Shown here piece by piece: positions 4,641 through 32,376 of a stretch of 32,376 nt of DNA. The DNA is taken from assembly GCA_934177025.1 (NCBI GenBank), contig CAKPPA010000001.1, positions 1-32,376 on the forward strand, written 5' to 3'. The translations under genes and the position numbers were made by a program. Numbering within the stretch: position 1 is the first letter of the stretch; every line of letters begins with the position of its first letter. The notes beneath the pieces are model-generated. The model was not told where the DNA came from. It made no database searches and saw only the letters and a program-made list of their open reading frames with translations. The stretch comes from an uncultured Clostridia bacterium. Lineage in GTDB: Bacteria > Bacillota > Clostridia > Christensenellales > CAG-314.

Positions 4641-4655
4641 TTTTCCTAACTTGCT

Positions 4656-4798
4656 TTTTACGATTTCGCTTTTTAAAGTTTTTGCGACTTCGCTTTTTTC
4701 AAGGTTTTGTGACTTCCTTTTTCAAAAGTTTACGATTTCCTTATTTCAAAAGTTTACGATTCCTCTTTTTTTAAGTTTTTGTGATTTCGTTTTTTCAA
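4656..4798. repeat. six degenerate tandem repeats, period 23-26 nt
   Basis: Units are tttacgatttcgctttttaaag / tttttgcgacttcgcttttttcaagg / ttttgtgacttcctttttcaaaag / tttacgatttccttatttcaaaag / tttacgattcctctttttttaag / tttttgtgatttcgttttttcaac. Confidence 0.75.
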
Positions 4799-4940: not shown

Positions 4941-5981
4941 TTATTTTACGGTTTTTTCGTAAATCCGATGTACGGCAGTCACTTCGGCGTGGAGCCGCTC
5001 GGCCATTTCCAACTCCGTAAAGGCGTTCTCCGCAATTTTGTGTAGCACAATCTTTTCGCAGGAGGACGGAATGCGCCGCCGCATTTGCTCCAAAATGACG
5101 TAAAACATATCCTTTTGCAAGTACGTTTGTTTGCAACAAAGCGCAAGGACGTGGAACGTCGACCGATCCGCCGAATCTTCCTCCTTTCGTCGTGCAAAAA
5201 TTCGTTTCCTTTTCCCCAGCGTGTCCTCAAAGCCGCCGGCACAAAAACCTACCGGATGCGAAAGTTCGTCCTTAAGTAGCAACATCACGTTCGGTTTTCG
5301 CAGCATCCCCAACAACTCCGGATAGCCGTTTAAAAACGCTTCGGAAATGCTTACGGTACTTTCCTCGTACTTGTCCTTATCCGCAATGGAAACCAAATCC
5401 TTAATTTGTGCGCATTTACTCGTGCGGAACGGCTCCGCCGCAATTCCTTCCGGCAGTTCGTCCTTTAACGCCTCGTTACGAAACGCCACGGTAAACACGT
5501 CCTTGTACTTGCCAAAACCCATTTCCTCAAACAACTGACGGTAGTATGGCGGTTGACGGAAAAAGAATTTTTCCTCGCCGAAAATCGGGCAGCCGTCGCC
5601 GTTAAACGGATTAAACGTGCAAACCGGCCCTTTCAGCCGCGACACCCCGTACTTTTTCATTTGCAAAAACACACTTTCGAACAGCAGTTGCGCCGTCGCA
5701 ACGGAATCCTCACAGTAAAAATAACAAAAATAACACGTCGGGCAATCGCCGCAATGCTTGTCGTTTTCAAAATAAAACAACGTTTGCGCCTTAATTTGAC
5801 CGCCGTCCCTTACGGCAACCGCAAAAACGTTGCGCTTGGAAAGCACCGCCCCGCTTAATTTTTTAAAATAATGGCGGAACAAAAGATTCGCCGTTTTTTC
5901 CTTTTCGGCGGCGACGTATGGGAATTGCGAATAGACGAATTTTTTTAATTCTCTTTTCGTCGAAATGAGTTTTACTTCCAT
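4941..5981 (-). CDS. hypothetical protein, probably a GNAT-like acyltransferase-fold family member
   Basis: 346 aa. The segment LKGPVCTFNPFNGDGCPIFGEEKFFFRQPPYYRQLFEEMGFGKYKDVF resembles the GPI..S.N...G.L..GF......M.YNPPYY..L.E..GF.K pattern of an uncharacterised GNAT-like family, recalled from memory. It also has a Cys cluster, HCGDCPTCYFCYFYC. Confidence 0.4.
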   Translation of the reverse strand: MEVKLISTKRELKKFVYSQFPYVAAEKEKTANLLFRHYFKKLSGAVLSKRNVFAVAVRDGGQIKAQTLFYFENDKHCGDCPTCYFCYFYCEDSVATAQLLFESVFLQMKKYGVSRLKGPVCTFNPFNGDGCPIFGEEKFFFRQPPYYRQLFEEMGFGKYKDVFTVAFRNEALKDELPEGIAAEPFRTSKCAQIKDLVSIADKDKYEESTVSISEAFLNGYPELLGMLRKPNVMLLLKDELSHPVGFCAGGFEDTLGKRKRIFARRKEEDSADRSTFHVLALCCKQTYLQKDMFYVILEQMRRRIPSSCEKIVLHKIAENAFTELEMAERLHAEVTAVHRIYEKTVK

Positions 5982-6074
5982 AATGTAACCTTATTTTTCA
6001 AATTTTAAGTTTTTTCCCAACCGATGTCAACAGCCAAACCGCTTCCATCACGTTTTTTCAGATAATCTTCACAA

Positions 6075-6345
6075 TACTTCCTTTTTTCTCCCTGATTTTT
6101 CCTTGTTTCCGCCGTTTTTTCGTCCCTTTTTGGTTGCTTTGCCGTTCCGCATTCGTTCCCCTTTTGTTGTTTTTCCACTGCAGTTACTCCTATTTTTTCC
6201 TCCCCTTGTTTTTGCTTTTTTCCCTTGCTCTTTTCCTCGCTCTTTTCCTTTCCTCTTTTTTCCCTTTCTCTTTCCTTTTTGATCCCGCTTTTTTCTTTTC
6301 TTTTTCTCTCTTTCCTTTTTTCGCTTTTTCCCTACGCTGTGCGTT
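6075..6345. repeat. long homopyrimidine (plus strand) / homopurine (minus strand) low-complexity tract
   Basis: About 270 nt is almost only T and C on the plus strand. Uninterrupted pyrimidine runs occur at 6240..6280 (41 nt) and 6288..6322 (35 nt). Confidence 0.8.
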
Positions 6346-6397
6346 CCTACGGAAGGAATCATTTTTTTGAAAAAAGGTTTTTTCGGAAAAACTCCTT

Positions 6398-6426
6398 TTG
6401 ACTTACGGCGCAAAAATCGGTATAAT
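6398..6426 (+). promoter_or_regulatory. near-consensus promoter of the methyltransferase gene
   Basis: TTGACT (6398..6403), 17-nt spacer, TATAAT (6421..6426). The ATG at 6433 is only 6 nt downstream and has no SD. Confidence 0.6.
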
Positions 6427-6432
6427 CATTTT

Positions 6433-8556
6433 ATGGAACGAACCTATTTTACTTGTGAAGAAATTGCAACAAAATGGAACATCTCCGAACGTCGCGTGCA
6501 GGAGCTTTGCGCCGAAAACCGCATCACGGGGGCGGTAAAAGTAGGCAACCGCTGGCAAATTCCGCAAAACGCACTTTGTCCGACCGACCTACGCAAGCAC
6601 ATCCCTTCGGGGCAAATGGATTTGTGGCAGGACGTCCTTTCCCTTGCCGATGCGGCGCAGGAATTGCACGTTTCGCCGGGAACCTTGCGGAATTGGGTGA
6701 AAGCCGAACGCATTGTACCTGCACTTCGCTCGGAAAACAAGTTATATTTTTTAAAAAAGGACGTGAATGCGCTAAAAACCGCTTCCACCTCCCGCCTCAA
6801 ACACCGCCGCAACAAAACGCGGACGGAGGGGCGCACGCTTTATGCGGAATATTTGGAGGAAACGCGCAACGTGCCGCTTGTCGAAAGCGTTTTGCAAAAA
6901 GCGGACGAATTGGACGAGGCGGACATCCGCATTGTGCTGGCGGAGTTTTCCTTAAAACTGTTTTGCCAAAAATTCGCCCTGCCCTGCCGCACCGTTGCGT
7001 TAACGGATTTTTTGGACGGAACGCTGTCGTTGCCGCTGTATCGGCCGCTGGTGGAGGAACTTTTGCCGCCGCACCCCGAAACGCGGATTACCAAACTAAC
7101 CGAAATTCTGTCGCAAACGCCGATGCTTTTCCCGAAGGAGGATTTCCTCGGGTTTTTGTACATTTCCTTAAAGCAACTGTCCGTCCGCAAGCAGGAAGGC
7201 ATTTACTACACCCCGGTTGCCGTGGTGCGCGAACTCCTGCAAAATGCGCATCCGACGCAAACCGACCGCATTTTGGATCCGTGCTGCGGCACGGGAAATT
7301 TCCTGATTTACTTTAGCGACGTTTTGTCGTCGCCGCAAAATTTGTACGGTTGGGACACGGATGAATGCAGCATTTTACTGCTACGCATTAACGTTGCGCT
7401 TCATTACCAAACGGCGGATTTAAAAACGCTGTACGAAAATTTTCGTTGTTTGGATTCGTTGGAACGTACCCCGAAGGAAACGTTCGACTACGTCCTTGGC
7501 AATCCGCCGTGGGGCGCGGCGTATCCCGCTTGCGTGTTCCGTCGCTTGGAAAAGCATTTTCAAACAGCCTCCACAAAGGAATCCTTCGACATTTTTACGG
7601 AATTTGCGTTCCTCTCCCTAAAACCGAACGGCGAACTGCTGTTTGTGCTGCCGCAAGCGGTAACAAACGTCGGCAAGCACCTGCCGTTACGCCGATTTTT
7701 ACTGCCACAAGCGGCGTTTTGCAGTGTAAAATTTTTGGACGGCTCCTTTTACGGGGTGCAATGCCCTGCACTTCTCCTCCACTTAAAAAAAGCGACGCCA
7801 ACCGTTGTCGGATGCGTCGTAACGTATGCGGATCGCGCCTTTGTCCTACAAAAAGAGCGCACGTTTACCGACGTTTTTGATTTTTCGGCGGACGATGCGG
7901 AAACGGAACTCCTGCAAAAAATGAGGGACGGCGTGCGGGAGTATTTGACCGACGCCGAATTTGCGCTCGGCATCGTGACGGGCGACAACGCCGCATTCCT
8001 TTCCGACAACCCTACAAACGGCGAGCCGGTGCTCAAGGGAAGCGACGTGTTCCGCTTTTCCCTAGGGGAACCGAAAACATATTTAACCTTTGCGCCGCAA
8101 AAATTTCAACAATGCGCCGAGGAAGGGAAGTATCGCGCGGCGGAAAAAATCGTTTACCGCTTTATTTGCAACACCCCCGTGTTTGCTTACGACAACGCAC
8201 AACGGCTGACGTTAAACAGCGCAAACATTTTCATTCCGCACTCCGAAACGCTTTCCATAAAGTATATCCTTGGCGTACTCAACGCCAAAACCACGCATTT
8301 TTACTGGAAAAAAACTTACGCCTCCGTAAAAATGCTTAAGTCGCACCTCAAAAGCATTCCCCTCCCCGTTGTAGAAAAGGACGTGCAGCAGCGCATCGAA
8401 GCATTGGTCGATGCCCTCCGAAATAAGGAAAACGTAACGGAAAATTACGAACGCCTGAATCGGGAAGTGTACGCTTTGTACGCCCTAACGCCGGAACAAA
8501 TCCTTTGTGTGGAAAACTCCGTAAAAAATCAAAACTTGTTTTTGGCGGAATCGTAA
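6433..8556 (+). CDS. solitary gamma-class N6-adenine DNA methyltransferase (Eco57I/TaqI-like) with two N-terminal HTH domains and a C-terminal TaqI-like specificity domain
   Basis: Two excisionase/MerR-like HTH units: YFTCEEIATKWNISERRVQELCAENRITGAVKVGNRWQIP and LSLADAAQELHVSPGTLRNWVKAERIV. MTase motifs: GIYYTPVAVV, motif I ILDPCCGTGNFL (7276..), motif IV GNPPWG (NPPW at 7501..7512), LKPNGELLFVLP. The TRD has GIVTGDNAAFL, LKGSDVFRF and ILGVLNAKTTHFYW. The ORF track start at TTG 6367 is replaced by ATG 6433. Confidence 0.85.
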   Translation: MERTYFTCEEIATKWNISERRVQELCAENRITGAVKVGNRWQIPQNALCPTDLRKHIPSGQMDLWQDVLSLADAAQELHVSPGTLRNWVKAERIVPALRSENKLYFLKKDVNALKTASTSRLKHRRNKTRTEGRTLYAEYLEETRNVPLVESVLQKADELDEADIRIVLAEFSLKLFCQKFALPCRTVALTDFLDGTLSLPLYRPLVEELLPPHPETRITKLTEILSQTPMLFPKEDFLGFLYISLKQLSVRKQEGIYYTPVAVVRELLQNAHPTQTDRILDPCCGTGNFLIYFSDVLSSPQNLYGWDTDECSILLLRINVALHYQTADLKTLYENFRCLDSLERTPKETFDYVLGNPPWGAAYPACVFRRLEKHFQTASTKESFDIFTEFAFLSLKPNGELLFVLPQAVTNVGKHLPLRRFLLPQAAFCSVKFLDGSFYGVQCPALLLHLKKATPTVVGCVVTYADRAFVLQKERTFTDVFDFSADDAETELLQKMRDGVREYLTDAEFALGIVTGDNAAFLSDNPTNGEPVLKGSDVFRFSLGEPKTYLTFAPQKFQQCAEEGKYRAAEKIVYRFICNTPVFAYDNAQRLTLNSANIFIPHSETLSIKYILGVLNAKTTHFYWKKTYASVKMLKSHLKSIPLPVVEKDVQQRIEALVDALRNKENVTENYERLNREVYALYALTPEQILCVENSVKNQNLFLAES

Positions 8557-8584
8557 TTTTTCCTCGGCTTCGGGGCTACCTCAC

Positions 8585-8677
8585 GTTACGAAAAAGTCGT
8601 CCGTGCGGCACAGTCGATTTGAATGGTCATCATGGTATCTTTCTACCGCAGGTTACAAAAAAGTCGTCGTGCGACAC
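8585..8677. repeat. two copies of a 26/27-nt direct repeat 67 nt apart
   Basis: gttacgaaaaagtcgtccgtgcggcac (8585..8611) and gttacaaaaaagtcgtcgtgcgacac (8652..8677). Confidence 0.7.
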
Positions 8678-8869
8678 CTCTGTCTCCTTCCCTTTTTCGT
8701 CAGACCCTTGTCGCAACGGCAAGGAAACCCGACGAACGGAAACAAAAAACCCAAAACCGAACGACGGTTTTTAAAAACCTCACTTCAAAAAACCAATCCG
8801 TACCCGTTGCAAAACAACCCCCGCAACAAACGTACGAAAAACAAGCCCTTCCCACCATTTACAAACTCA

Positions 8870-8912
8870 AAACGACAAAAAACAAGCGCACCTTCCCTTT
8901 TCGAAGTGTGCT
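8870..8912 (-). terminator. terminator of the 8953..9381 gene
   Basis: Minus strand has AGCACAC-loop-GTGCGCT (plus-strand arms 8885..8891 and 8906..8912) followed by TGTTTTTTGTCGTTTT. Confidence 0.6.
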
Positions 8913-8952
8913 CTTAACTTTTTTACAAAAATTTTTTCCTTTTCCGTCGGCG

Positions 8953-9381
8953 TTACTTTTGCTGTTCCGCCGTCATTCCGAACTTTTCGAGTAAAGTCTC
9001 CTTCACGTCTCCTACCGTTTCCTCTGCCGCTTTTCGCAACGTAGCATGGATTCGCCTTTCGTCCCACCCGAAAAAGGCTTTTGCGGCAAGTTGGCGTTCC
9101 GCCTCGTTTTCCGAAAGTTTTGCAACGTACCGTTCGGTTTTTCCGTCCCGCACCGCATCGAAGGCATAGCCTTCCTTTTTTAAAAAGCAGTACGTTTCCA
9201 TAAACGGCTTAACGTACCCGTAGGTGCGATCCACCACACGAAACGTGTCGGAGCCGCGCGCGCGTGTGTCCGCAACGACCAAAATACTCCCTTTCGGCGT
9301 TTTTTTAAAGCCGGATAACGCAAATCCCGCTATCACAAGGAGGATAACCCCCGCAACCAACAACAATCCCTGTGCACCCAT
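8953..9381 (-). CDS. hypothetical small membrane-anchored protein
   Basis: The internal ATG at 9381 is preceded by AAGGAGTAAGGAAAAC. The product, MGAQGLLLVAGVILLVIAGFAL..., has one N-terminal TM helix plus a roughly 115-aa soluble domain. The longer ORF (to 9513) only adds a K/R/E-rich translation of the purine-rich leader. Confidence 0.6.
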   Translation of the reverse strand: MGAQGLLLVAGVILLVIAGFALSGFKKTPKGSILVVADTRARGSDTFRVVDRTYGYVKPFMETYCFLKKEGYAFDAVRDGKTERYVAKLSENEAERQLAAKAFFGWDERRIHATLRKAAEETVGDVKETLLEKFGMTAEQQK

Positions 9382-9502
9382 GTTTTCCTTACTCCTTTCC
9401 CTTTCCTCGGCTGTCCCCCGTGAAACCCTACGATCCTGTCGGTTTTTTTCGCGTGCTTCCGTACGCCGAGCGGAACCCTTGTTCGAGTTTTTCGTTCCGC
9501 CG

Positions 9503-9595
9503 CTTTTCGGCACGGCTTTTTCCTACTTTTCGGCACGGCATTTCCCTACTTTTGGATGAAGTTTTTCCTGCTTTTCGGTTATGCCCGTTTTCCCC
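9503..9595. repeat. about four degenerate tandem repeats, period about 23 nt
   Basis: cttttcggcacggctttttcctac / ttttcggcacggcatttccctac / ttttggatgaagtttttcctgc / ttttcggttatgcccgttttcccc. Confidence 0.7.
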
Positions 9596-9616
9596 TTGGC
9601 TCCGTTTTGCGGGTTT

Positions 9617-9645
9617 ATTATACCTTGTTTCGCTTTTCGACGCAA
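9617..9645 (-). promoter_or_regulatory. candidate promoter giving a roughly 230-nt leader for the 8953..9381 gene
   Basis: Minus strand reads TTGCGT (9645..9640), 17-nt spacer, TATAAT (9622..9617). Confidence 0.5.
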
Positions 9646-9676
9646 CTTTTTCCTTTCGTCTCAAAAAAACCGACAC

Positions 9677-9700
9677 AAAAAAAGGAAGGTGTTCCTTCCT
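9677..9700 (-). terminator. nadE terminator (bidirectional shape)
   Basis: AGGAAGG (9683..9689) - TGTT - CCTTCCT (9694..9700), flanked by an A-run on one side and a T-run on the other, immediately after the nadE stop. Confidence 0.75.
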
Positions 9701-9706
9701 TTTTGG

Positions 9707-10444
9707 CTATTTTTCGGTTTTTTCGTAAATTTTCGCCGCTTCCCGCTTGTGTTCGGTGGCACGATGCATTTTAAAAAATTTTTCCTTGTTTTGCTCCGAC
9801 GCTTCGCCGTGTAAAATCCACCGATCGAGTTCCTGATAGGTAAAGCCCAAGTCCTCCTCGTCCGTTTGCCCTTCGAACAGTCCTGCCGACGGGGCTTTTT
9901 TCACAATGGATTCCGGCGCACCCAAAAACTTCAAAAACTCCGTTACTTCCGTTGCGCACAAATCCCCAATCGGGTTAAAGTCGTAAGCACCGTCCCCCCA
10001 TTTGGTAAAATAGCCGACGTACCGCTCCGAACGGTTTCCCGTCCCCGCAACCAAACTGTTTCGACTTTGCGCCACGGTGTAAAGCACCGTCATGCGCAAC
10101 CGCGGATTCACGTTTTGCAACGCCGCCGCACTCGGTGTCGGCTTTAACGGTAAGGCATCGCACAAAGCACGCTTCGTTGCCGTTACGTCCACGGTGTAAC
10201 TTTCAATGCCGTAGCGTTGCGCCAAAGCAAGGGCATCGACGGAATCCTCGCCGAAGTTTCGCGAACTTTCGCACGGCAAAAGAACCCCCAGCGTGTTGTC
10301 GCAGGCGGCTTTGCACAAAATGCCCGTCAAGGCGGAGTCCTTGCCGCCGCTGTTGCCGAACACAATGCCTTGAGCCCCACTTTGTTTCATCACGTTGCGA
10401 ATCCATTCCACGCGAAGTCGAAATTCTTCCTCGTAATTCCTCAT
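9707..10444 (-). CDS. nadE: NH3-dependent NAD+ synthetase
   Basis: PP-loop motif FGNSGGKDSA, 245 aa, SD GGAAGGAGAGG upstream of the ATG. Confidence 0.85.
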   Translation of the reverse strand: MRNYEEEFRLRVEWIRNVMKQSGAQGIVFGNSGGKDSALTGILCKAACDNTLGVLLPCESSRNFGEDSVDALALAQRYGIESYTVDVTATKRALCDALPLKPTPSAAALQNVNPRLRMTVLYTVAQSRNSLVAGTGNRSERYVGYFTKWGDGAYDFNPIGDLCATEVTEFLKFLGAPESIVKKAPSAGLFEGQTDEEDLGFTYQELDRWILHGEASEQNKEKFFKMHRATEHKREAAKIYEKTEK

Positions 10445-14201: not shown

Positions 14202-15111
14202 TTGCTCCTCCGATCCAATCCTTTAAATCCCGATACATTTCCCGTTCCGTTTCCTTTTGCAAATTTTTGTCGGTGCCGTTTTTCCATGCCGCTGCGGCAT
14301 TTCGAAAGGACTCCGCATCCATCGCGTCCGAATAAACCGTCGCTCCCGCTACTTCCGCCGTCCCCCAGCCGAACCGCCGCACCAAGCCGCTTTCGTCCGT
14401 TTCCGGCACGGACGCACGCTTTAACGCCGCAGCAAACGGTTCCGTCCCCGTCGGGAGTGCCCTCGGCGTTCCGTCAAACCGCAAACAAAATTGTTCCAGC
14501 ACGGTGTTTTTCCACTTTTCCACCGTCAGCGACGGCACGCTTTCCGTCAAATTTTGCACACGCGCGCGAACGGATGCCACCCCGTGCGCCGCACGTTTTT
14601 CCGCCGACGGCGTCAGGCATTTTCGCATTTTTTCCAAATTGACCGCAATTAAAAAGGTTCCGTGCAACAAGGTTTTGTTCCCCTGCTTGCGGTACGCACA
14701 GCCCGACACCTTTTTTCCGTTGACCGTCAAATCGTTTCGCCCCGATTTTTCCATTTGCAAGCCGAACGCCGAAAACACGGCGACAATTCCTTCCCAAAAC
14801 AATGCTTCCTCCGCAGGGCGGAAAAAAAGAAAGGAAAAATTTAAATTCCCTTCGTCCTGAAACACCGCGCCCCCGCCGCTTTGCCGACGGCAAACGGCAA
14901 CGCCGTGTTCCTTTGCGTAATGCAAATCGCACTCCGACGAAATGCGTTGGTTTTTGCCAACCACCACGCAGTCGGCGTTTTGCCACAAAAACAGCGTCGG
15001 AAGGGACGCCGTTTCGAACAATGCCGCTTCCGTCGCAAGGTTTTGCCAAGGATCCGTGCAAACGGATTCCAAAAATTCCGCCGATGGTTTTGTTTTCACG
15101 GGTTTTCGCAC
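14188..15111 (-). CDS. lplA: lipoate-protein ligase A
   Basis: Motifs RRQSGGGAVFQDEGNLNFSF and NGKKVSGCAYR (lipoyl-AMP lysine). GTG start at 15111. It overlaps lpd by 14 nt and the upstream gene by 16 nt. Confidence 0.8.
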   Translation of the reverse strand: MRKPVKTKPSAEFLESVCTDPWQNLATEAALFETASLPTLFLWQNADCVVVGKNQRISSECDLHYAKEHGVAVCRRQSGGGAVFQDEGNLNFSFLFFRPAEEALFWEGIVAVFSAFGLQMEKSGRNDLTVNGKKVSGCAYRKQGNKTLLHGTFLIAVNLEKMRKCLTPSAEKRAAHGVASVRARVQNLTESVPSLTVEKWKNTVLEQFCLRFDGTPRALPTGTEPFAAALKRASVPETDESGLVRRFGWGTAEVAGATVYSDAMDAESFRNAAAAWKNGTDKNLQKETEREMYRDLKDWIGGANETV

Positions 15112-15740
15112 CTCAAACTTTCGCGAATTTTACGGCGTGCCATGTTCGCCGTGGGTTCGTCGATTTTTTCTATCGTTTGCAACGTTTTTTGCCGAAACCG
15201 CACGCAAGCATCCGCCAAAAGCCACGCACGCGCCATGTTCACGTAGTAGCGCGTTTCGTCGTTTTTGTTCGTTACTTCCGTAAGTACGTCCTCCACGTGC
15301 ACTTCGTCCAAATAAAATTTTCGTAAAAACACAAAGCCGAAGCGAGCCGCAAACTCCTCGGGGCGGCGGCACGCCTCACAACCGAAGGCAAAGTACCTTT
15401 CCCTTTCCGCTTGCGGAACGCGAAAGGCGGAAACAAACCCGTCGCACAACGCCCAATTGTCGATTTTTTCCCATGCGGCAACGGTTTTCACGTGTTTTTG
15501 CGCAAAAGGCAACGCTTCGTTTGCCGTTAAGTACAAGTACGTCCATGCTTCCTCAAAACTATCCCCGCGGTACTGCCGAAAAAAATCCTCCGCATCCAAA
15601 GTTTTTGCAAACTTTTTTAACAAAGGAATCCTTACCCCGCAAATTTCGCGGGACACGGGAATCAATTTTTTTTGAAACAACCGGTAAGGTTCCTCCGCAT
15701 TTTCGGTTAGGAATTTGCGAAAATCGTCGTACGTGTTCAT
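15096..15740 (-). CDS. DNA alkylation repair protein (AlkD-like HEAT-repeat family)
   Basis: 214 aa with YRLFQKKLIPVSREICGVRIPLLKKFAKTL, NWALCDGF, FGFVFLRKFY, YYVNMARAWLL and RKIRES, as in the DNA alkylation repair enzyme family. Confidence 0.7.
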   Translation of the reverse strand: MNTYDDFRKFLTENAEEPYRLFQKKLIPVSREICGVRIPLLKKFAKTLDAEDFFRQYRGDSFEEAWTYLYLTANEALPFAQKHVKTVAAWEKIDNWALCDGFVSAFRVPQAERERYFAFGCEACRRPEEFAARFGFVFLRKFYLDEVHVEDVLTEVTNKNDETRYYVNMARAWLLADACVRFRQKTLQTIEKIDEPTANMARRKIRESLRCENP

Positions 15741-15896
15741 AACGGTATTTTAGCACAATTCCCCGCTTTTTGTAAACGGTCAACCCAAAGGAAACTCTTT
15801 TCCGTTGCCGCAAAATCACAAAAACGCAAAAAACCATGTTTTTTCGGAAAAACTTTGCCACAACGGCAAAATACTTCGCTCGTTCGCGCCGAGTTA

Positions 15897-18073: not shown

Positions 18074-18246
18074 GCCTTTTTTGCGCATCCGCTTTTTCGT
18101 CCCCCTTTTCGTAAGTTTTTGGAATGGAACGGCTTTTCCTTTTTCGTAAGGTTTCACGGTTTTTCTTTTTCCTTGTTTTCCCCTGTTCCGTACCGACGCT
18201 TCCCTTCCTTTTTTCCTTTTTCCCTTGTTTTGCCTTTTTTACTCGT

Positions 18247-21993: not shown

Positions 21994-22026
21994 CCTTTTT
22001 GCCCCTGCCGTTCGGCACACGAGGCG

Positions 22027-22071
22027 GAATCGGTTTTTTAAGCGTTACGAATTTACAAAAAAAGGAAGTGA
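22027..22071. repeat. left copy of the 45/46-nt direct repeat flanking the AT-rich islet
   Basis: GAATCGGTTTTTTAAGCGTTACGAATTTACAAAAAAAGGAAGTGA. The last 30 nt (22042..22071) are identical to 23271..23300. Confidence 0.85.
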
Positions 22072-22107
22072 TAGGGTTGTCACTTTTGAAACTAGTAGAA
22101 TAAAAAT

Positions 22108-22162
22108 AAGGAACAATGCTCTTTGGGGGTTCCCCTCATTTAAAAAGCAAAGTTCCTTTTTT
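22108..22162. terminator. long imperfect hairpin with flanking T/A runs, probable terminator of the XRE gene
   Basis: AAGGAAC (22108..22114) pairs with GTTCCTT (22152..22158) and encloses an inner GCTCTTT/AAAAAGC pairing. TTTT follows on the plus strand and ATTTTTATT on the minus strand. Confidence 0.4.
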
Positions 22163-22248
22163 ATTTGTTGCAAAAATGGTTGTCCAAGGGTTAAAATAAT
22201 TAAAACTAGTAAAAAAAGCATATTTTTAATATATATCCTTTTAATATT

Positions 22249-22458
22249 CTAATACGCTCCGACCAATTCATCAATAGAGATATTAAAAAATTTCGCAAGT
22301 ACAATTAAAGAATGCATGGTTGGTTCTCTAAGACCATTTTCCCACAAACTAATAACTCCTTTACTCACCCCTATTGCTTTAGCTAATTCAACTTGACCCA
22401 AAAATTTTTCTTGTCTTAATTCTTTTAAATTTTCTTTAAACTTATTTTGATATATCAT
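22249..22458 (-). CDS. XRE-family helix-turn-helix transcriptional regulator
   Basis: 69 aa. LRQEKFLGQVELAKAIGVSKGVISLWENGLREPTMHSLIVLAKFFNISIDELVG is a classic Cro/C1-type HTH. Confidence 0.85.
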   Translation of the reverse strand: MIYQNKFKENLKELRQEKFLGQVELAKAIGVSKGVISLWENGLREPTMHSLIVLAKFFNISIDELVGAY

Positions 22459-22469
22459 ATTTTGATGTT

Positions 22470-22520
22470 CTCACAAATGTAAGAAGAATACTTGACTTCT
22501 TACAAATGTAAGAATATAAT
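22470..22520 (+). promoter_or_regulatory. promoter of the zinc-ribbon gene with two palindromic operators
   Basis: TTGACT (22492..22497), 17-nt spacer, TATAAT (22515..22520). Operators are CTCACAAATGTAAG (22470..22483) and the perfect palindrome CTTACAAATGTAAG (22499..22512, inside the spacer), 29 nt apart. Confidence 0.6.
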
Positions 22521-22551
22521 ATGATTAAATTATAAAAGGAGGAAAAGTAAG

Positions 22552-22875
22552 ATGAAATGTTCAAAATGCGGAAAGGAAATCCATGATGATGCGGAAATTT
22601 GTGTTCATTGTGGTTGTAGGGTAAAAAATGAACCAATATTAACTTCAAATGATAGTAAAAACGCAGTAAGGTTTGCTTTAACATTTTTCTTAGGTTTTAT
22701 CGGCAGTTTTATTATAAATCACACAAATTTAAAACCTGATGGATGGAAATCAAGAACTTGTGCGTATTTTTTTCTTTCCCTTGTTACTTTTGGTATTTAT
22801 CAATTAGTTGCTTCAATTTGCAATTTTACCTTTAATGCTCAACAATCTTCAAACATAGGATATTTTAAAGATTAG
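22552..22875 (+). CDS. zinc-ribbon plus TM2-like two-helix membrane protein
   Basis: 107 aa. CSKCGKEIHDDAEICVHCGC provides four Cys. Hydrophobic segments FALTFFLGFIGSFIINH and CAYFFLSLVTFGIYQLVASI follow. SD AAGGAGG lies 9 nt upstream. Confidence 0.7.
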   Translation: MKCSKCGKEIHDDAEICVHCGCRVKNEPILTSNDSKNAVRFALTFFLGFIGSFIINHTNLKPDGWKSRTCAYFFLSLVTFGIYQLVASICNFTFNAQQSSNIGYFKD

Positions 22876-23015
22876 TAACTTATTTATAAATATATGAATA
22901 AAACAAACTAAAAAGCCACCTTAGTATTTAAACGTGTGCTTATCTTGATACAAGTGTTCTCGCTTCGCTCGAACAGACAAGCACGCTCCTATAACTAAAT
23001 TGAAGCAACCAAAAA

Positions 23016-23053
23016 GTGAAAGTGTTGGTGGACGTAACACACTTTCGCTTTTT
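23016..23053 (+). terminator. terminator downstream of the zinc-ribbon gene
   Basis: GTGAAAGTGT (23016..23025) pairs with ACACTTTCGC (23039..23048) around a 13-nt loop. TTTTT follows. Confidence 0.6.
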
Positions 23054-23254
23054 GCTGTTCTATACAATGTCTAATTTATTCTATGGTGCACTTGGCAAGG
23101 GGTTCTGAAATGATTTTTCTTTTGCTGGTTAAACCAGAGAAACGCTATTTGTGCTTGTGGGGCTTCGCCCTTTTCCTTTCTCTGCCTTTTTGTATTTTTT
23201 CATTTCTTCTCTTGTCAAGTACCTTTCACGGCATAAAATAGCCCATAAAAAAGC

Positions 23255-23300
23255 GAATCGGTTGTTTAAAGCGTTACGAATTTACAAAAAAAGGAAGTGA
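23255..23300. repeat. right copy of the direct repeat flanking the islet
   Basis: GAATCGGTTGTTTAAAGCGTTACGAATTTACAAAAAAAGGAAGTGA. It differs from the left copy by one substitution and one extra A. Confidence 0.85.
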
Positions 23301-32071: not shown

Positions 32072-32215
32072 GCCTCCTTTTTTTCGAAAAGTTTTTTCTC
32101 TTTTTTTGCTCCTTTCAAAAAGAGAATTTTGCCTTTTTTTCCGTTCCTTTGAAAAAGAAAATTTTACCTTTTTTTTCGTTCCTTTTTAAAAGTATTTTCT
32201 CTTTCTCTTTTCTTT
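32072..32215. repeat. four degenerate tandem repeats, period 33-37 nt, running into homopyrimidine tracts
   Basis: gcctcctttttttcgaaaagttttttctcttttttt / gctcctttcaaaaagagaattttgccttttttt / ccgttcctttgaaaaagaaaattttacctttttttt / cgttcctttttaaaagtattttctc... Pure pyrimidine runs follow at 32195..32219 and 32241..32273. Confidence 0.7.
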
Positions 32216-32376
32216 TTTTGTCTTTTTCTCCAAAAAAACACTTTTTCTTTTTTCTCTTTTTTTCTTTCTTTTTGTCTCTTTTTTTCGAATTTTTTTTAAA
32301 AAACCTTTGCTTCGCATTTACTCCCAAAGTTTTCTCCCGCTACGGCGGGCGATAGCGATTGTAATGTATCCTTGTT

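Follow-up and report, generated by a model that had tools for sequence, protein, structure and literature searches.

What is a DNA methyltransferase that begins with two helix-turn-helix (HTH) units doing without a restriction partner, and how is it expressed from a promoter that ends 6 nt before its start codon? The question is raised by a gene at 6433..8556 (+; 707 aa, ATG to stop) in positions 1 to 32,376 of contig CAKPPA010000001.1 (assembly GCA_934177025.1), from an uncultured Clostridia bacterium; this 32,376-nt stretch as a whole is called the window. An earlier interpretation of the DNA letters (the sequence-only reading) had described a solitary N6-adenine methyltransferase with HTH domains in the place of a nuclease, and had ranked it as the best candidate for an uncharacterized system in the window. 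The answer favored here, with a probability of about 0.72, is that the gene encodes a functional orphan N6-adenine methyltransferase of restriction-modification (R-M) descent, belonging to a family that most likely represses its own transcription through the HTH domains; the window copy would be translated from a leaderless transcript and would mark the chromosome with N6-methyladenine (m6A). The gene is a highly divergent orphan member of a known, catalogued kind. The fitting annotation is that of an orphan Type II N6-adenine DNA methyltransferase with R-M ancestry and ATG 6433 as start codon, rather than that of a new system.

A divergent member of a catalogued family

The supposed uncharacterized system proved to be a divergent member of a very large family already modeled as the methyltransferase of Type II R-M systems. 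The protein matches the REBASE-style PADLOC profile PDLC03348 ("Type II methyltransferase", MTase_II) with E=2.6e-120, aa 68-686 aligning to profile positions 10-701 of 727. Among 8000 candidates scored in a search of 5.8 billion proteins, 1078 homologues reached E<=1e-10. The top 120 of these align over 99% of the query and range from 714 to 763 aa in length (most are 720-732); almost all show the architecture HTH_17, N6_Mtase, Eco57I and TaqI_C. Identity to any family member is about 34-39%, with the best at 38%. The family, for which a scan of one genome per species gave at least 562 loci, occurs in Clostridia, Bacilli, Treponema, Succinivibrio, Sutterella, Bifidobacterium, Prevotella, Muribaculaceae and one metagenome-assembled genome of Bdellovibrionota, a patchy taxonomic spread of the kind expected of a mobile gene.

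Despite its distance from the family, the window protein has all of the more than 100 columns, spread over every domain, that are invariant across 61 sequences. These include S18, R20, R21, Q23, L25 and C26 in the recognition helix of the first HTH unit (SxRRVQxLC), S81, N87 and W88 in the second, DPCCGTGNF and GNPPWG in the catalytic core, and many residues of the specificity domain. Identity to the family is reduced by a similar factor in each domain (ratio 0.55-0.76), and this even divergence argues for an old, still-constrained lineage rather than the decay of one module. The protein forms the longest and most basal branch of a neighbor-joining family tree. The protein is best seen as an orphan of long standing, diverged evenly, whose catalytic, specificity-domain and HTH signature residues have been kept.

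The limits of the gene follow from the same family. The open reading frame (ORF) at 6367..8556 (+) is uninterrupted and contains the methylase gene, and gene callers chose its TTG codon at 6367 as the start (P0001, 729 aa). When 14 full-length homologues are aligned, their first methionine (MYISV...) falls 3 residues past the window ATG at 6433 (MERTYFTC...), and the 22 extra residues of the TTG start have no counterpart. The gene is therefore taken as ATG 6433..8556.

A phage origin was considered and set aside, tblastn having given no match in 50,697 phage records. A plasmid collection yielded a single distant relative, with one HTH, on an Acetobacter plasmid with no annotated endonuclease nearby. 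No description of such an HTH-fused N6-adenine R-M family was found by full-text keyword search, a scope that leaves out subscription journals and REBASE entries. Queries of the literature on HTH_17-methylase fusions and MADS returned nothing specific, the MADS results being swamped by spindle-checkpoint Mad proteins.

Domain architecture and predicted structure

The two excisionase/MerR-like HTH units that had been recognized at the N-terminus are confirmed by HTH_17, the NCBIfam excise model, AlphaFold2 and Foldseek. The first, a winged HTH of MerR/excisionase type (aa 1-50, 6433..6582), is marked by TIGR01764 excise at aa 5-48, by its invariant columns and by structural matches to TraN, RacA, BldC and Xis. 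The second (aa 68-115, 6634..6777), of HTH_17/MerR type, is the better of two stretches matched by HTH_17 in Pfam (9.4e-15). A basic linker follows (aa 116-146, 6778..6870) that is modeled with low confidence (predicted local distance difference test score, pLDDT, <50 at aa 123-130) and holds the motif L-x2-RRNK-x4-G-x3-Y-x2-Y, strictly invariant throughout the family (L122, R125, R126, N127, K128, G133, Y137, Y140); this motif might contact DNA as an arm or act as a regulatory peptide within the molecule. Ahead of the catalytic core lies an all-helical domain (aa 147-270, 6871..7242) that has no beta-sheet by DSSP, and so is no PD-(D/E)xK nuclease, and for which Foldseek gave no nuclease match.

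The catalytic domain (aa 271-470, 7243..7842) is of the gamma class of N6-adenine methyltransferases, identified by N6_Mtase (aa 252-468, 1.1e-20, 74.7 bits against a cut-off of 20.4), by Eco57I (aa 303-427, 1.5e-08), by sequence matches in the PDB and by Foldseek matches to CamA, M.BseCI and M.TaqI. Motif I (DPCCGTGNF) and motif IV (NPPW) stand in gamma order, both in family-invariant columns, and all four of the methyltransferase motifs quoted earlier, GIYYTP, DPCCGTGNF, NPPW and LKPNGELLFVLP, are present in the translation. The remainder is a TaqI-like target recognition domain (aa 471-645) with C-terminal helices (aa 646-707), together 7843..8553; the predicted specificity domain is upheld by TaqI_C (aa 532-644, 9.3e-26, 90.8 bits against a cut-off of 26.5), the model and Foldseek.

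An AlphaFold2 model of the full protein, built on an alignment of 61 sequences (mean pLDDT 85.4, predicted template modeling score 0.74), shows two beta-helix-helix-beta-beta winged-HTH units at aa 4-44 and 68-107, a low-confidence stretch at aa 115-146, helices at 147-270, a Rossmann-type core at 275-470, a mixed fold at 480-645 and three helices at 649-696. Compared with the PDB, the whole model matches CamA best (E=3.3e-22), then M.BseCI, M.TaqI and BrxX/PglX. A separate model of aa 1-270 (pLDDT 83.8) matches only small MerR/excisionase-type DNA binders: TraN of pIP501, RacA, BldC, the N-terminal domains of MerR-family proteins, and Xis of Tn916, lambda and Pukovnik. Single HTH units superpose on BldC, RacA and Xis at 1.7-2.0 Å over ~50 residues. 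The E-values of these matches are weak (0.03-1) because the domains are small; the Foldseek probabilities are 0.96-1.0. Neither model thus gave, in Foldseek comparison with the PDB, anything other than winged-HTH and methylase matches, and a nuclease concealed in the N-terminal 270 aa was rejected. Less apt is the earlier comparison with an Eco57I/MmeI layout in which HTH units take the place of the nuclease: the monomeric methylases M.TaqI, CamA and M.BseCI are the better match, and MmeI_Mtase scores 16.4, below its cut-off of 27.

Homologue neighborhoods and the missing partner

Solitude is not the rule among the homologues: a consistent restriction partner beside orthologues, which the sequence-only reading had named as a finding that would count against it, is largely what the loci show. 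Partners were sought within 4 kb of the methylase gene at 80 homologue loci, 72 of which are informative in having at least 1.5 kb of downstream sequence. An endonuclease designated type A (~245 aa) is found in 33 of the 80 loci and another, type B (~183 aa), in 27; one or both are present in 48 of the 72 informative loci and neither in 24. A controller (C) protein is encoded at 25 of the 80 loci (24 of the informative 72). The partners always lie downstream on the opposite strand, and the endonucleases nearly always 0-600 bp from the end of the methylase gene. In Guopingia tenuis (locus L001) the methylase occupies the margin of an integrase/NikA/AAA-ATPase island beside guaA and is followed by a convergent 244-aa ORF and a 71-aa HTH_3 protein. 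The 244-aa partner has a D...EVK motif and matches REase_II of PADLOC (PDLC03414, 8.9e-29), and the small HTH partner matches Control_protein (1.5e-20). The endonucleases typical of the family are small and PD-(D/E)xK-like; L001:10231-10965 and L002:10767-11318 exemplify types A and B. Comparable arrangements occur in [Clostridium] innocuum (L002) and on a metagenomic contig (L004). The settings of these three loci indicate that the R-M module behaves as cargo of integrative mobilizable elements and defense islands.

Partner-less members are scattered among partnered ones in the neighbor-joining tree, which is consistent with repeated orphanization. Three of them (L042, L043 and L055) share synteny, in a chromosomal setting with ctsR/mcsB. 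The family is one of Type II R-M systems from which orphans arise again and again.

Several details of these loci are recorded alongside. The islands of L001 and L004 carry a tyrosine integrase, with a NikA-like protein and an AAA_25/DnaB-like ATPase in L001. The module lies just downstream of guaA in both L001 and L002, and in L002 it adjoins a Hachimoji-like HamA/helicase pair. Eight loci have both endonuclease types behind one methylase (for example L007, L008, L017, L069, L073 and L077), and some have two type B paralogues; the second B-type ORF of L002 is 115 aa long and matches only the C-terminal part of the first. Endonucleases A and B may be either alternative enzymes or subunits.

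The window itself holds no such partner. Partner proteins were used in tblastn, and hidden Markov models (HMMs) derived from 30 sequences of type A, 25 of type B and 23 of C proteins were run against the six-frame translation; apart from a generic XRE-type HTH, no endonuclease or C remnant was detected in the 32 kb, which bears out the earlier statement that the methylase has no nuclease neighbor. The XRE-type HTH (22252-22470, -) was dismissed as a C gene remnant, being generic and 16 kb from the methylase. At the site where homologues have the convergent endonuclease there is a 396-bp non-coding spacer (8557..8952) in which neither tblastn nor the HMMs detect a remnant.

The promoter and a predicted leaderless transcript

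A sigma-70/sigma-A-type promoter, TTGACT-17-TATAAT, lies at 6398..6426 (+). It agrees with the consensus at 11 of 12 positions and is the sole plus-strand consensus site within 5900-9800. Its -10 hexamer ends 6 nt 5' of ATG 6433, and there is no GGAGG-like Shine-Dalgarno (SD) sequence between the two. Thus far the earlier description of the promoter was accurate. The contrast it drew with an SD in nearly every other gene was overstated, since only about half of the 22 larger window genes carry a clear one. The promoter geometry fits the proposed leaderless transcript, which is predicted to start at or next to the A of ATG 6433. Leaderless mRNAs are documented in R-M regulation, the strong transcript of C.PvuII being leaderless (PMC2175313).

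Comparison with 47 homologue upstream regions, anchored on their promoters (loci L006-L085; from 40 nt before to 45 nt after the -35 hexamer), places this layout in the history of the family. The leaders of the homologues are 11-40 nt long, nearly all 18-40 and all but two at least 21, and most have an evident GGAGG-type SD. The 6-nt leader of the window copy is the shortest among the 48 promoters compared, the next one named being that of L061, at 11 nt. Because the homologues are normally led and mostly carry an SD, the leaderless layout would be the derived state of a led gene.

The window has a second candidate leaderless gene, a DNA-alkylation-repair-like ORF at 15096-15740 (-). Its promoter at 15741-15775 reads TTTACA-18-TAAAAT-6-ATG, has a TG two bases 5' of the -10 hexamer and lacks an SD. 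That the same promoter-6 nt-ATG layout recurs here raises the plausibility of leaderless starts in this organism and makes the methylase less exceptional in this respect; such starts may be a regular feature of the organism.

Two further observations concern the upstream DNA. The 14-nt palindrome-like sequence TTTTTCGGAAAAAC occurs exactly at 6379-6392 and 15840-15853, each copy promoter-proximal and just 5' of a hexamer that starts with TTG. When 2 mismatches are allowed its occurrence in the window is not significant (11 found, 4.4 expected, shuffle maximum 11), and the repeat is regarded as incidental. Long pyrimidine-rich (CT) low-complexity spacers with degenerate tandem repeats of 8-35-nt period lie at 4655-4798, 6212-6331, 9503-9553, 18205-18240 and 32086-32296, among them a 24-nt unit repeated six times at 4655-4798 and a 35-nt unit repeated three times at 32086-32192. 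The 300-bp tract 5' of the methylase promoter is one of many such spacers and therefore reflects a genome-wide trait that is not methylase-specific.

Candidate operator boxes

Promoters of the family share the layout (AT)CATTAATG – TTGACA – TTGTTCGC – N9 – TATAAT – N3 – ATCATTAAA(TG) – ~20 nt – GGAGG – N5-8 – ATG. Two palindromic or near-palindromic boxes stand out: O1, resembling CATTAATG, abuts the -35 hexamer, and O2, with consensus ATCATTAAATG, lies over the expected transcription start. TTGTTCG is conserved directly after the -35 hexamer. O1 and O2 co-vary between clades, one clade having ATTAATAT and ATTATAAT and L078 having CACTAAT at both. Among 22 loci with a detected C protein, 18 have both boxes, as do 18 of the 26 loci that lack one. 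Since retention of the boxes does not depend on a C protein, the methylase's own HTH pair is the most economical candidate to bind them; in the family it most likely does so and represses transcription of the methylase gene. Joining a repressor HTH to an R-M methylase is an established way of regulating such systems, M.SsoII, M.Ecl18kI and M.EcoRII being self-repressing (reviewed in PMC12707154).

The idea that the HTH domains autoregulate the gene, which would be their most likely role, is backed by the homologue promoters; in the window copy itself the boxes are largely lost. That copy keeps the -35 and -10 hexamers and part of the spacer (CGCA.AAA). O1 is absent (3 of 6 positions matched). 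A possible O2 remnant, ATCATTTTATGG at 6425..6436 (+), matches the CATTAA core at 4 of 6 positions; it is weak, is shifted by ~5 nt relative to the family, and overlaps the -10 hexamer, the predicted transcription start and the ATG, its own ATG being the start codon. The window shows no excess of further operator-like sites: TCATTAATGA, when up to 2 mismatches are allowed, occurs 9 times where 8.7 are expected.

A proposed mode of action

Taken together, the favored reading would operate as follows. Transcription from the promoter at 6398-6426 would start at or next to A6433, and the leaderless AUG would be translated, a step given somewhat better than an even chance. The enzyme would act as a monomer, like M.TaqI and CamA, with the target adenine flipped into the NPPW pocket and the methyl group taken from S-adenosylmethionine; homology allows high confidence in this step. 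The choice of sequence would lie with the TaqI-like domain. Binding of the promoter boxes by the HTH pair is probable for the family; the pair of the window copy may still bind the O2-like site over the start, or may be free to bind elsewhere. The likely role would be sequence-specific m6A marking of the chromosome without restriction, either as host epigenetic modification or as immunity to incoming R-M elements of the same family. A plausible selective value, proposed from general knowledge of orphan methylases, would be protection against establishment or post-segregational killing by related R-M islands circulating in gut Clostridia.

Several points weigh against this account. The TTG at 6367 is preceded by an SD-like GGAAGGA at 6351-6357 and, given an unseen upstream promoter, offers a conventional alternative start; as gene callers also picked this codon, a longer, normally led isoform is possible, and the leaderless proposal stands by its promoter geometry with this competitor beside it. 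Loss of O1 and the weak, shifted O2-like site mean that self-repression may have been lost in this copy, and in all members it is inferred that the HTH pair is what binds the boxes. C proteins were called by similarity alone within 4 kb of the methylase gene, so that some may be missed. There is no close relative, the best being 38% identical. The solitary state of the methylase, finally, was observed for the 32 kb that are visible, and an unlinked endonuclease is possible.

Alternative explanations

Were the methylase still half of a working R-M or other defense system, its nuclease would have to be dispersed to a place outside the window. Two thirds of the informative homologue loci do have an endonuclease, the HTH pair is fully conserved, as would be expected if regulation still mattered, and only 32 kb of the genome are in view. 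The partners detected in homologues, however, are always downstream on the opposite strand, within the 4 kb searched and nearly always 0-600 bp away, the very site at which the window has its 396-bp spacer without remnant. Nor was a defense gene found in the window, where MADS and BREX models score far below their cut-offs and all other Pfam-annotated genes are housekeeping, so that the earlier suggestion of a remaining half of a dispersed defense system is unlikely to be right. The other direction in which an orphan could have gone is co-option as a regulator in the manner of CamA, CcrM or Dam, its HTH pair targeting other loci or serving as a methylation-coupled transcription factor, with leaderless expression dependent on conditions. 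Retention of the HTH signature residues despite loss of the upstream operator speaks for this, as do the long, evenly diverged branch, the chromosomal site among housekeeping genes with host-like GC content, the orphan regulator CamA as closest solved structure, and the three syntenic chromosomal orphans in the ctsR/mcsB context. Yet the TCATTAATGA sites show no enrichment, related genomes offer no orthologues that would mark the methylase as a core gene, and likeness to CamA is common to the ordinary R-M methylases M.TaqI and M.BseCI; co-option therefore has a low probability.

Least probable, and very improbable indeed, is a decaying relic that is intact by chance and poorly expressed after deletion of leader, SD and operator. 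The losses of O1, leader and SD are real, the branch is the longest in the tree, and contigs from related populations break at ~6348, which may reflect presence/absence variation. Against decay stand the uninterrupted 2.1-kb ORF, the preservation of every family-invariant residue including NPPW and DPCCGTGNF, the confident AlphaFold2 model, a promoter with 11 of 12 consensus positions and an ATG start codon, the kind needed for leaderless translation. Also improbable is domestication of the orphan as a "methylating transcription factor". Here the winged-HTH pair, freed from the ancestral operator, would tether the enzyme to new chromosomal sites or sense methylation state, and leaderless translation would tie the amount of enzyme to growth state; if this were true, the gene would be a locus-targeted epigenetic writer in an uncultured gut Clostridium, and throughout the family a pseudo-dimeric HTH in a single chain would read the palindromic promoter boxes, a design undescribed for N6-adenine R-M methylases. 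The functional orphan of R-M descent is the reading retained below.

Surrounding genes and host lineage

Upstream of the methylase, a 346-aa ORFan at 4941-5981 (-) has only two homologues in 5.8 billion proteins. It had been called GNAT-like, a label that finds no match in Pfam, NCBIfam, PADLOC or PDB sequences. The small membrane protein noted on the other side (8953-9381, -) is there as described, with ~142 aa and one N-terminal hydrophobic helix that would anchor it. Farther away are MatE, nadE, an MFS transporter, lipoylation and glycine-cleavage genes, gltX, argS, uppP, ychF and gyrBA. GC content around the methylase matches that of the surroundings, and no synteny was found between the window and the homologue loci.

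The host lineage is very poorly sampled. Its GyrB reaches no more than 83% identity with any other sequence, and the named relatives are uncultured Clostridia/Eubacteriales such as Candidatus Limihabitans. Two contigs from other metagenomes (L087 and L088) carry the 346-aa gene at 96% and 92% nucleotide identity and end within 1 nt of each other, at approximately window position 6348, ~50 nt 5' of the methylase promoter; these ends could mean that strains differ in having the methylase, or that assembly broke off at the A/T hairpins. A metagenome scan with a conserved 17-mer gave 65 chance matches and no homologue.

Elsewhere in the window, a 1.3-kb AT-rich islet at 22000-23300 (GC 0.30 against ~0.50 around it) between gltX and argS looks like a small inserted module. 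It encodes a 69-aa XRE/RstR-like HTH protein (22249-22458, -; NCBIfam phage_RstR 2e-14, below the cut-off) and, divergently, a 107-aa protein (22552-22875, +) with an N-terminal zinc-ribbon-like CxxC...CxxC and hydrophobic segments. The left edge has two tRNA genes (2-159, -) next to a 434-aa surface/adhesin-type repeat protein with MBG_2 and YDG domains (271-1575, -).

Implications

Comparison of the homologues exposes a very large, mobile R-M family of gut bacteria in which the methylase has a tandem winged HTH and the promoter has conserved palindromic boxes, a testable example of self-regulation in an N6-adenine methylase. The window copy illustrates how a consensus promoter directly before the ATG can be kept by an orphan whose operator, leader and SD are gone, and it is a clean candidate for the study of leaderless expression in Clostridia. 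Apart from its probable leaderless transcript, the gene is ordinary.

Relationship to known systems

The closest comparison is with the PDLC03348 family itself. The window protein has the same domain order (winged HTH 1, winged HTH 2, RRNK linker, helical domain, methyltransferase, TaqI_C) and all invariant residues, is collinear over the model and over 99% of the ~720-aa homologues, and has the same core promoter type. It differs in having no convergent endonuclease, C protein, O1, leader or SD, and in its housekeeping chromosomal context, as against an integrase-bearing island.

More distant are enzymes that share single elements. Eco57I/MmeI and PglX have in common with the window protein the Eco57I-type catalytic Pfam signature and TaqI_C, and BrxX/PglX is among the Foldseek matches; Eco57I/MmeI enzymes have an N-terminal nuclease, whereas aa 1-270 here form two winged HTH units and a helical domain. 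BREX membership was rejected, the best PglX score being 30.3 bits against a cut-off of 500 (cut-offs of the PglX models are 400-900), with no brx-like genes in the window. Membership of MADS was likewise rejected (MAD2 43.5 bits against a cut-off of 720, MAD1 19 against 80); the window's Pfam-annotated genes include no defense gene, although no search aimed at other mad genes was made. As for the HTH pair, TraN of the Enterococcus plasmid pIP501 (PDB 4pm3) aligns over 126 columns that span both units, poorly superposed at a root-mean-square deviation of 13.4 Å. TraN, BldC, RacA and Xis are stand-alone proteins, whereas the window pair is fused to an enzyme.

Structurally, aa ~147-707 match CamA (target-normalized TM-score 0.64), M.BseCI (2e-18) and M.TaqI (1e-17), in all of which a catalytic domain is followed by a TaqI-like target recognition domain; CamA is likewise an orphan. 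Sequence identity is 15-20%, and none of the three is matched by the HTH-bearing aa 1-270 in Foldseek; they are not known to have such an N-terminal HTH module. Throughout its species CamA is a conserved protein with a link to sporulation, whereas the window gene has no known orthologues.

In regulation, the closest parallel is with M.SsoII, M.Ecl18kI and M.EcoRII, R-M methylases in which a sequence-specific N-terminal HTH binds a site in the methylase's own promoter and brings about auto-repression (PMC12707154), a scheme that the boxes of the homologues fit. Those enzymes are C5-cytosine methylases with a single HTH, whereas here an N6-adenine methylase carries two winged HTH units of MerR/Xis type and, in the family, often has a C protein beside it. 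Since its catalytic domain is of the N6-adenine type, the window protein is an analogue, and not a member, of the SsoII/Ecl18kI/EcoRII type.

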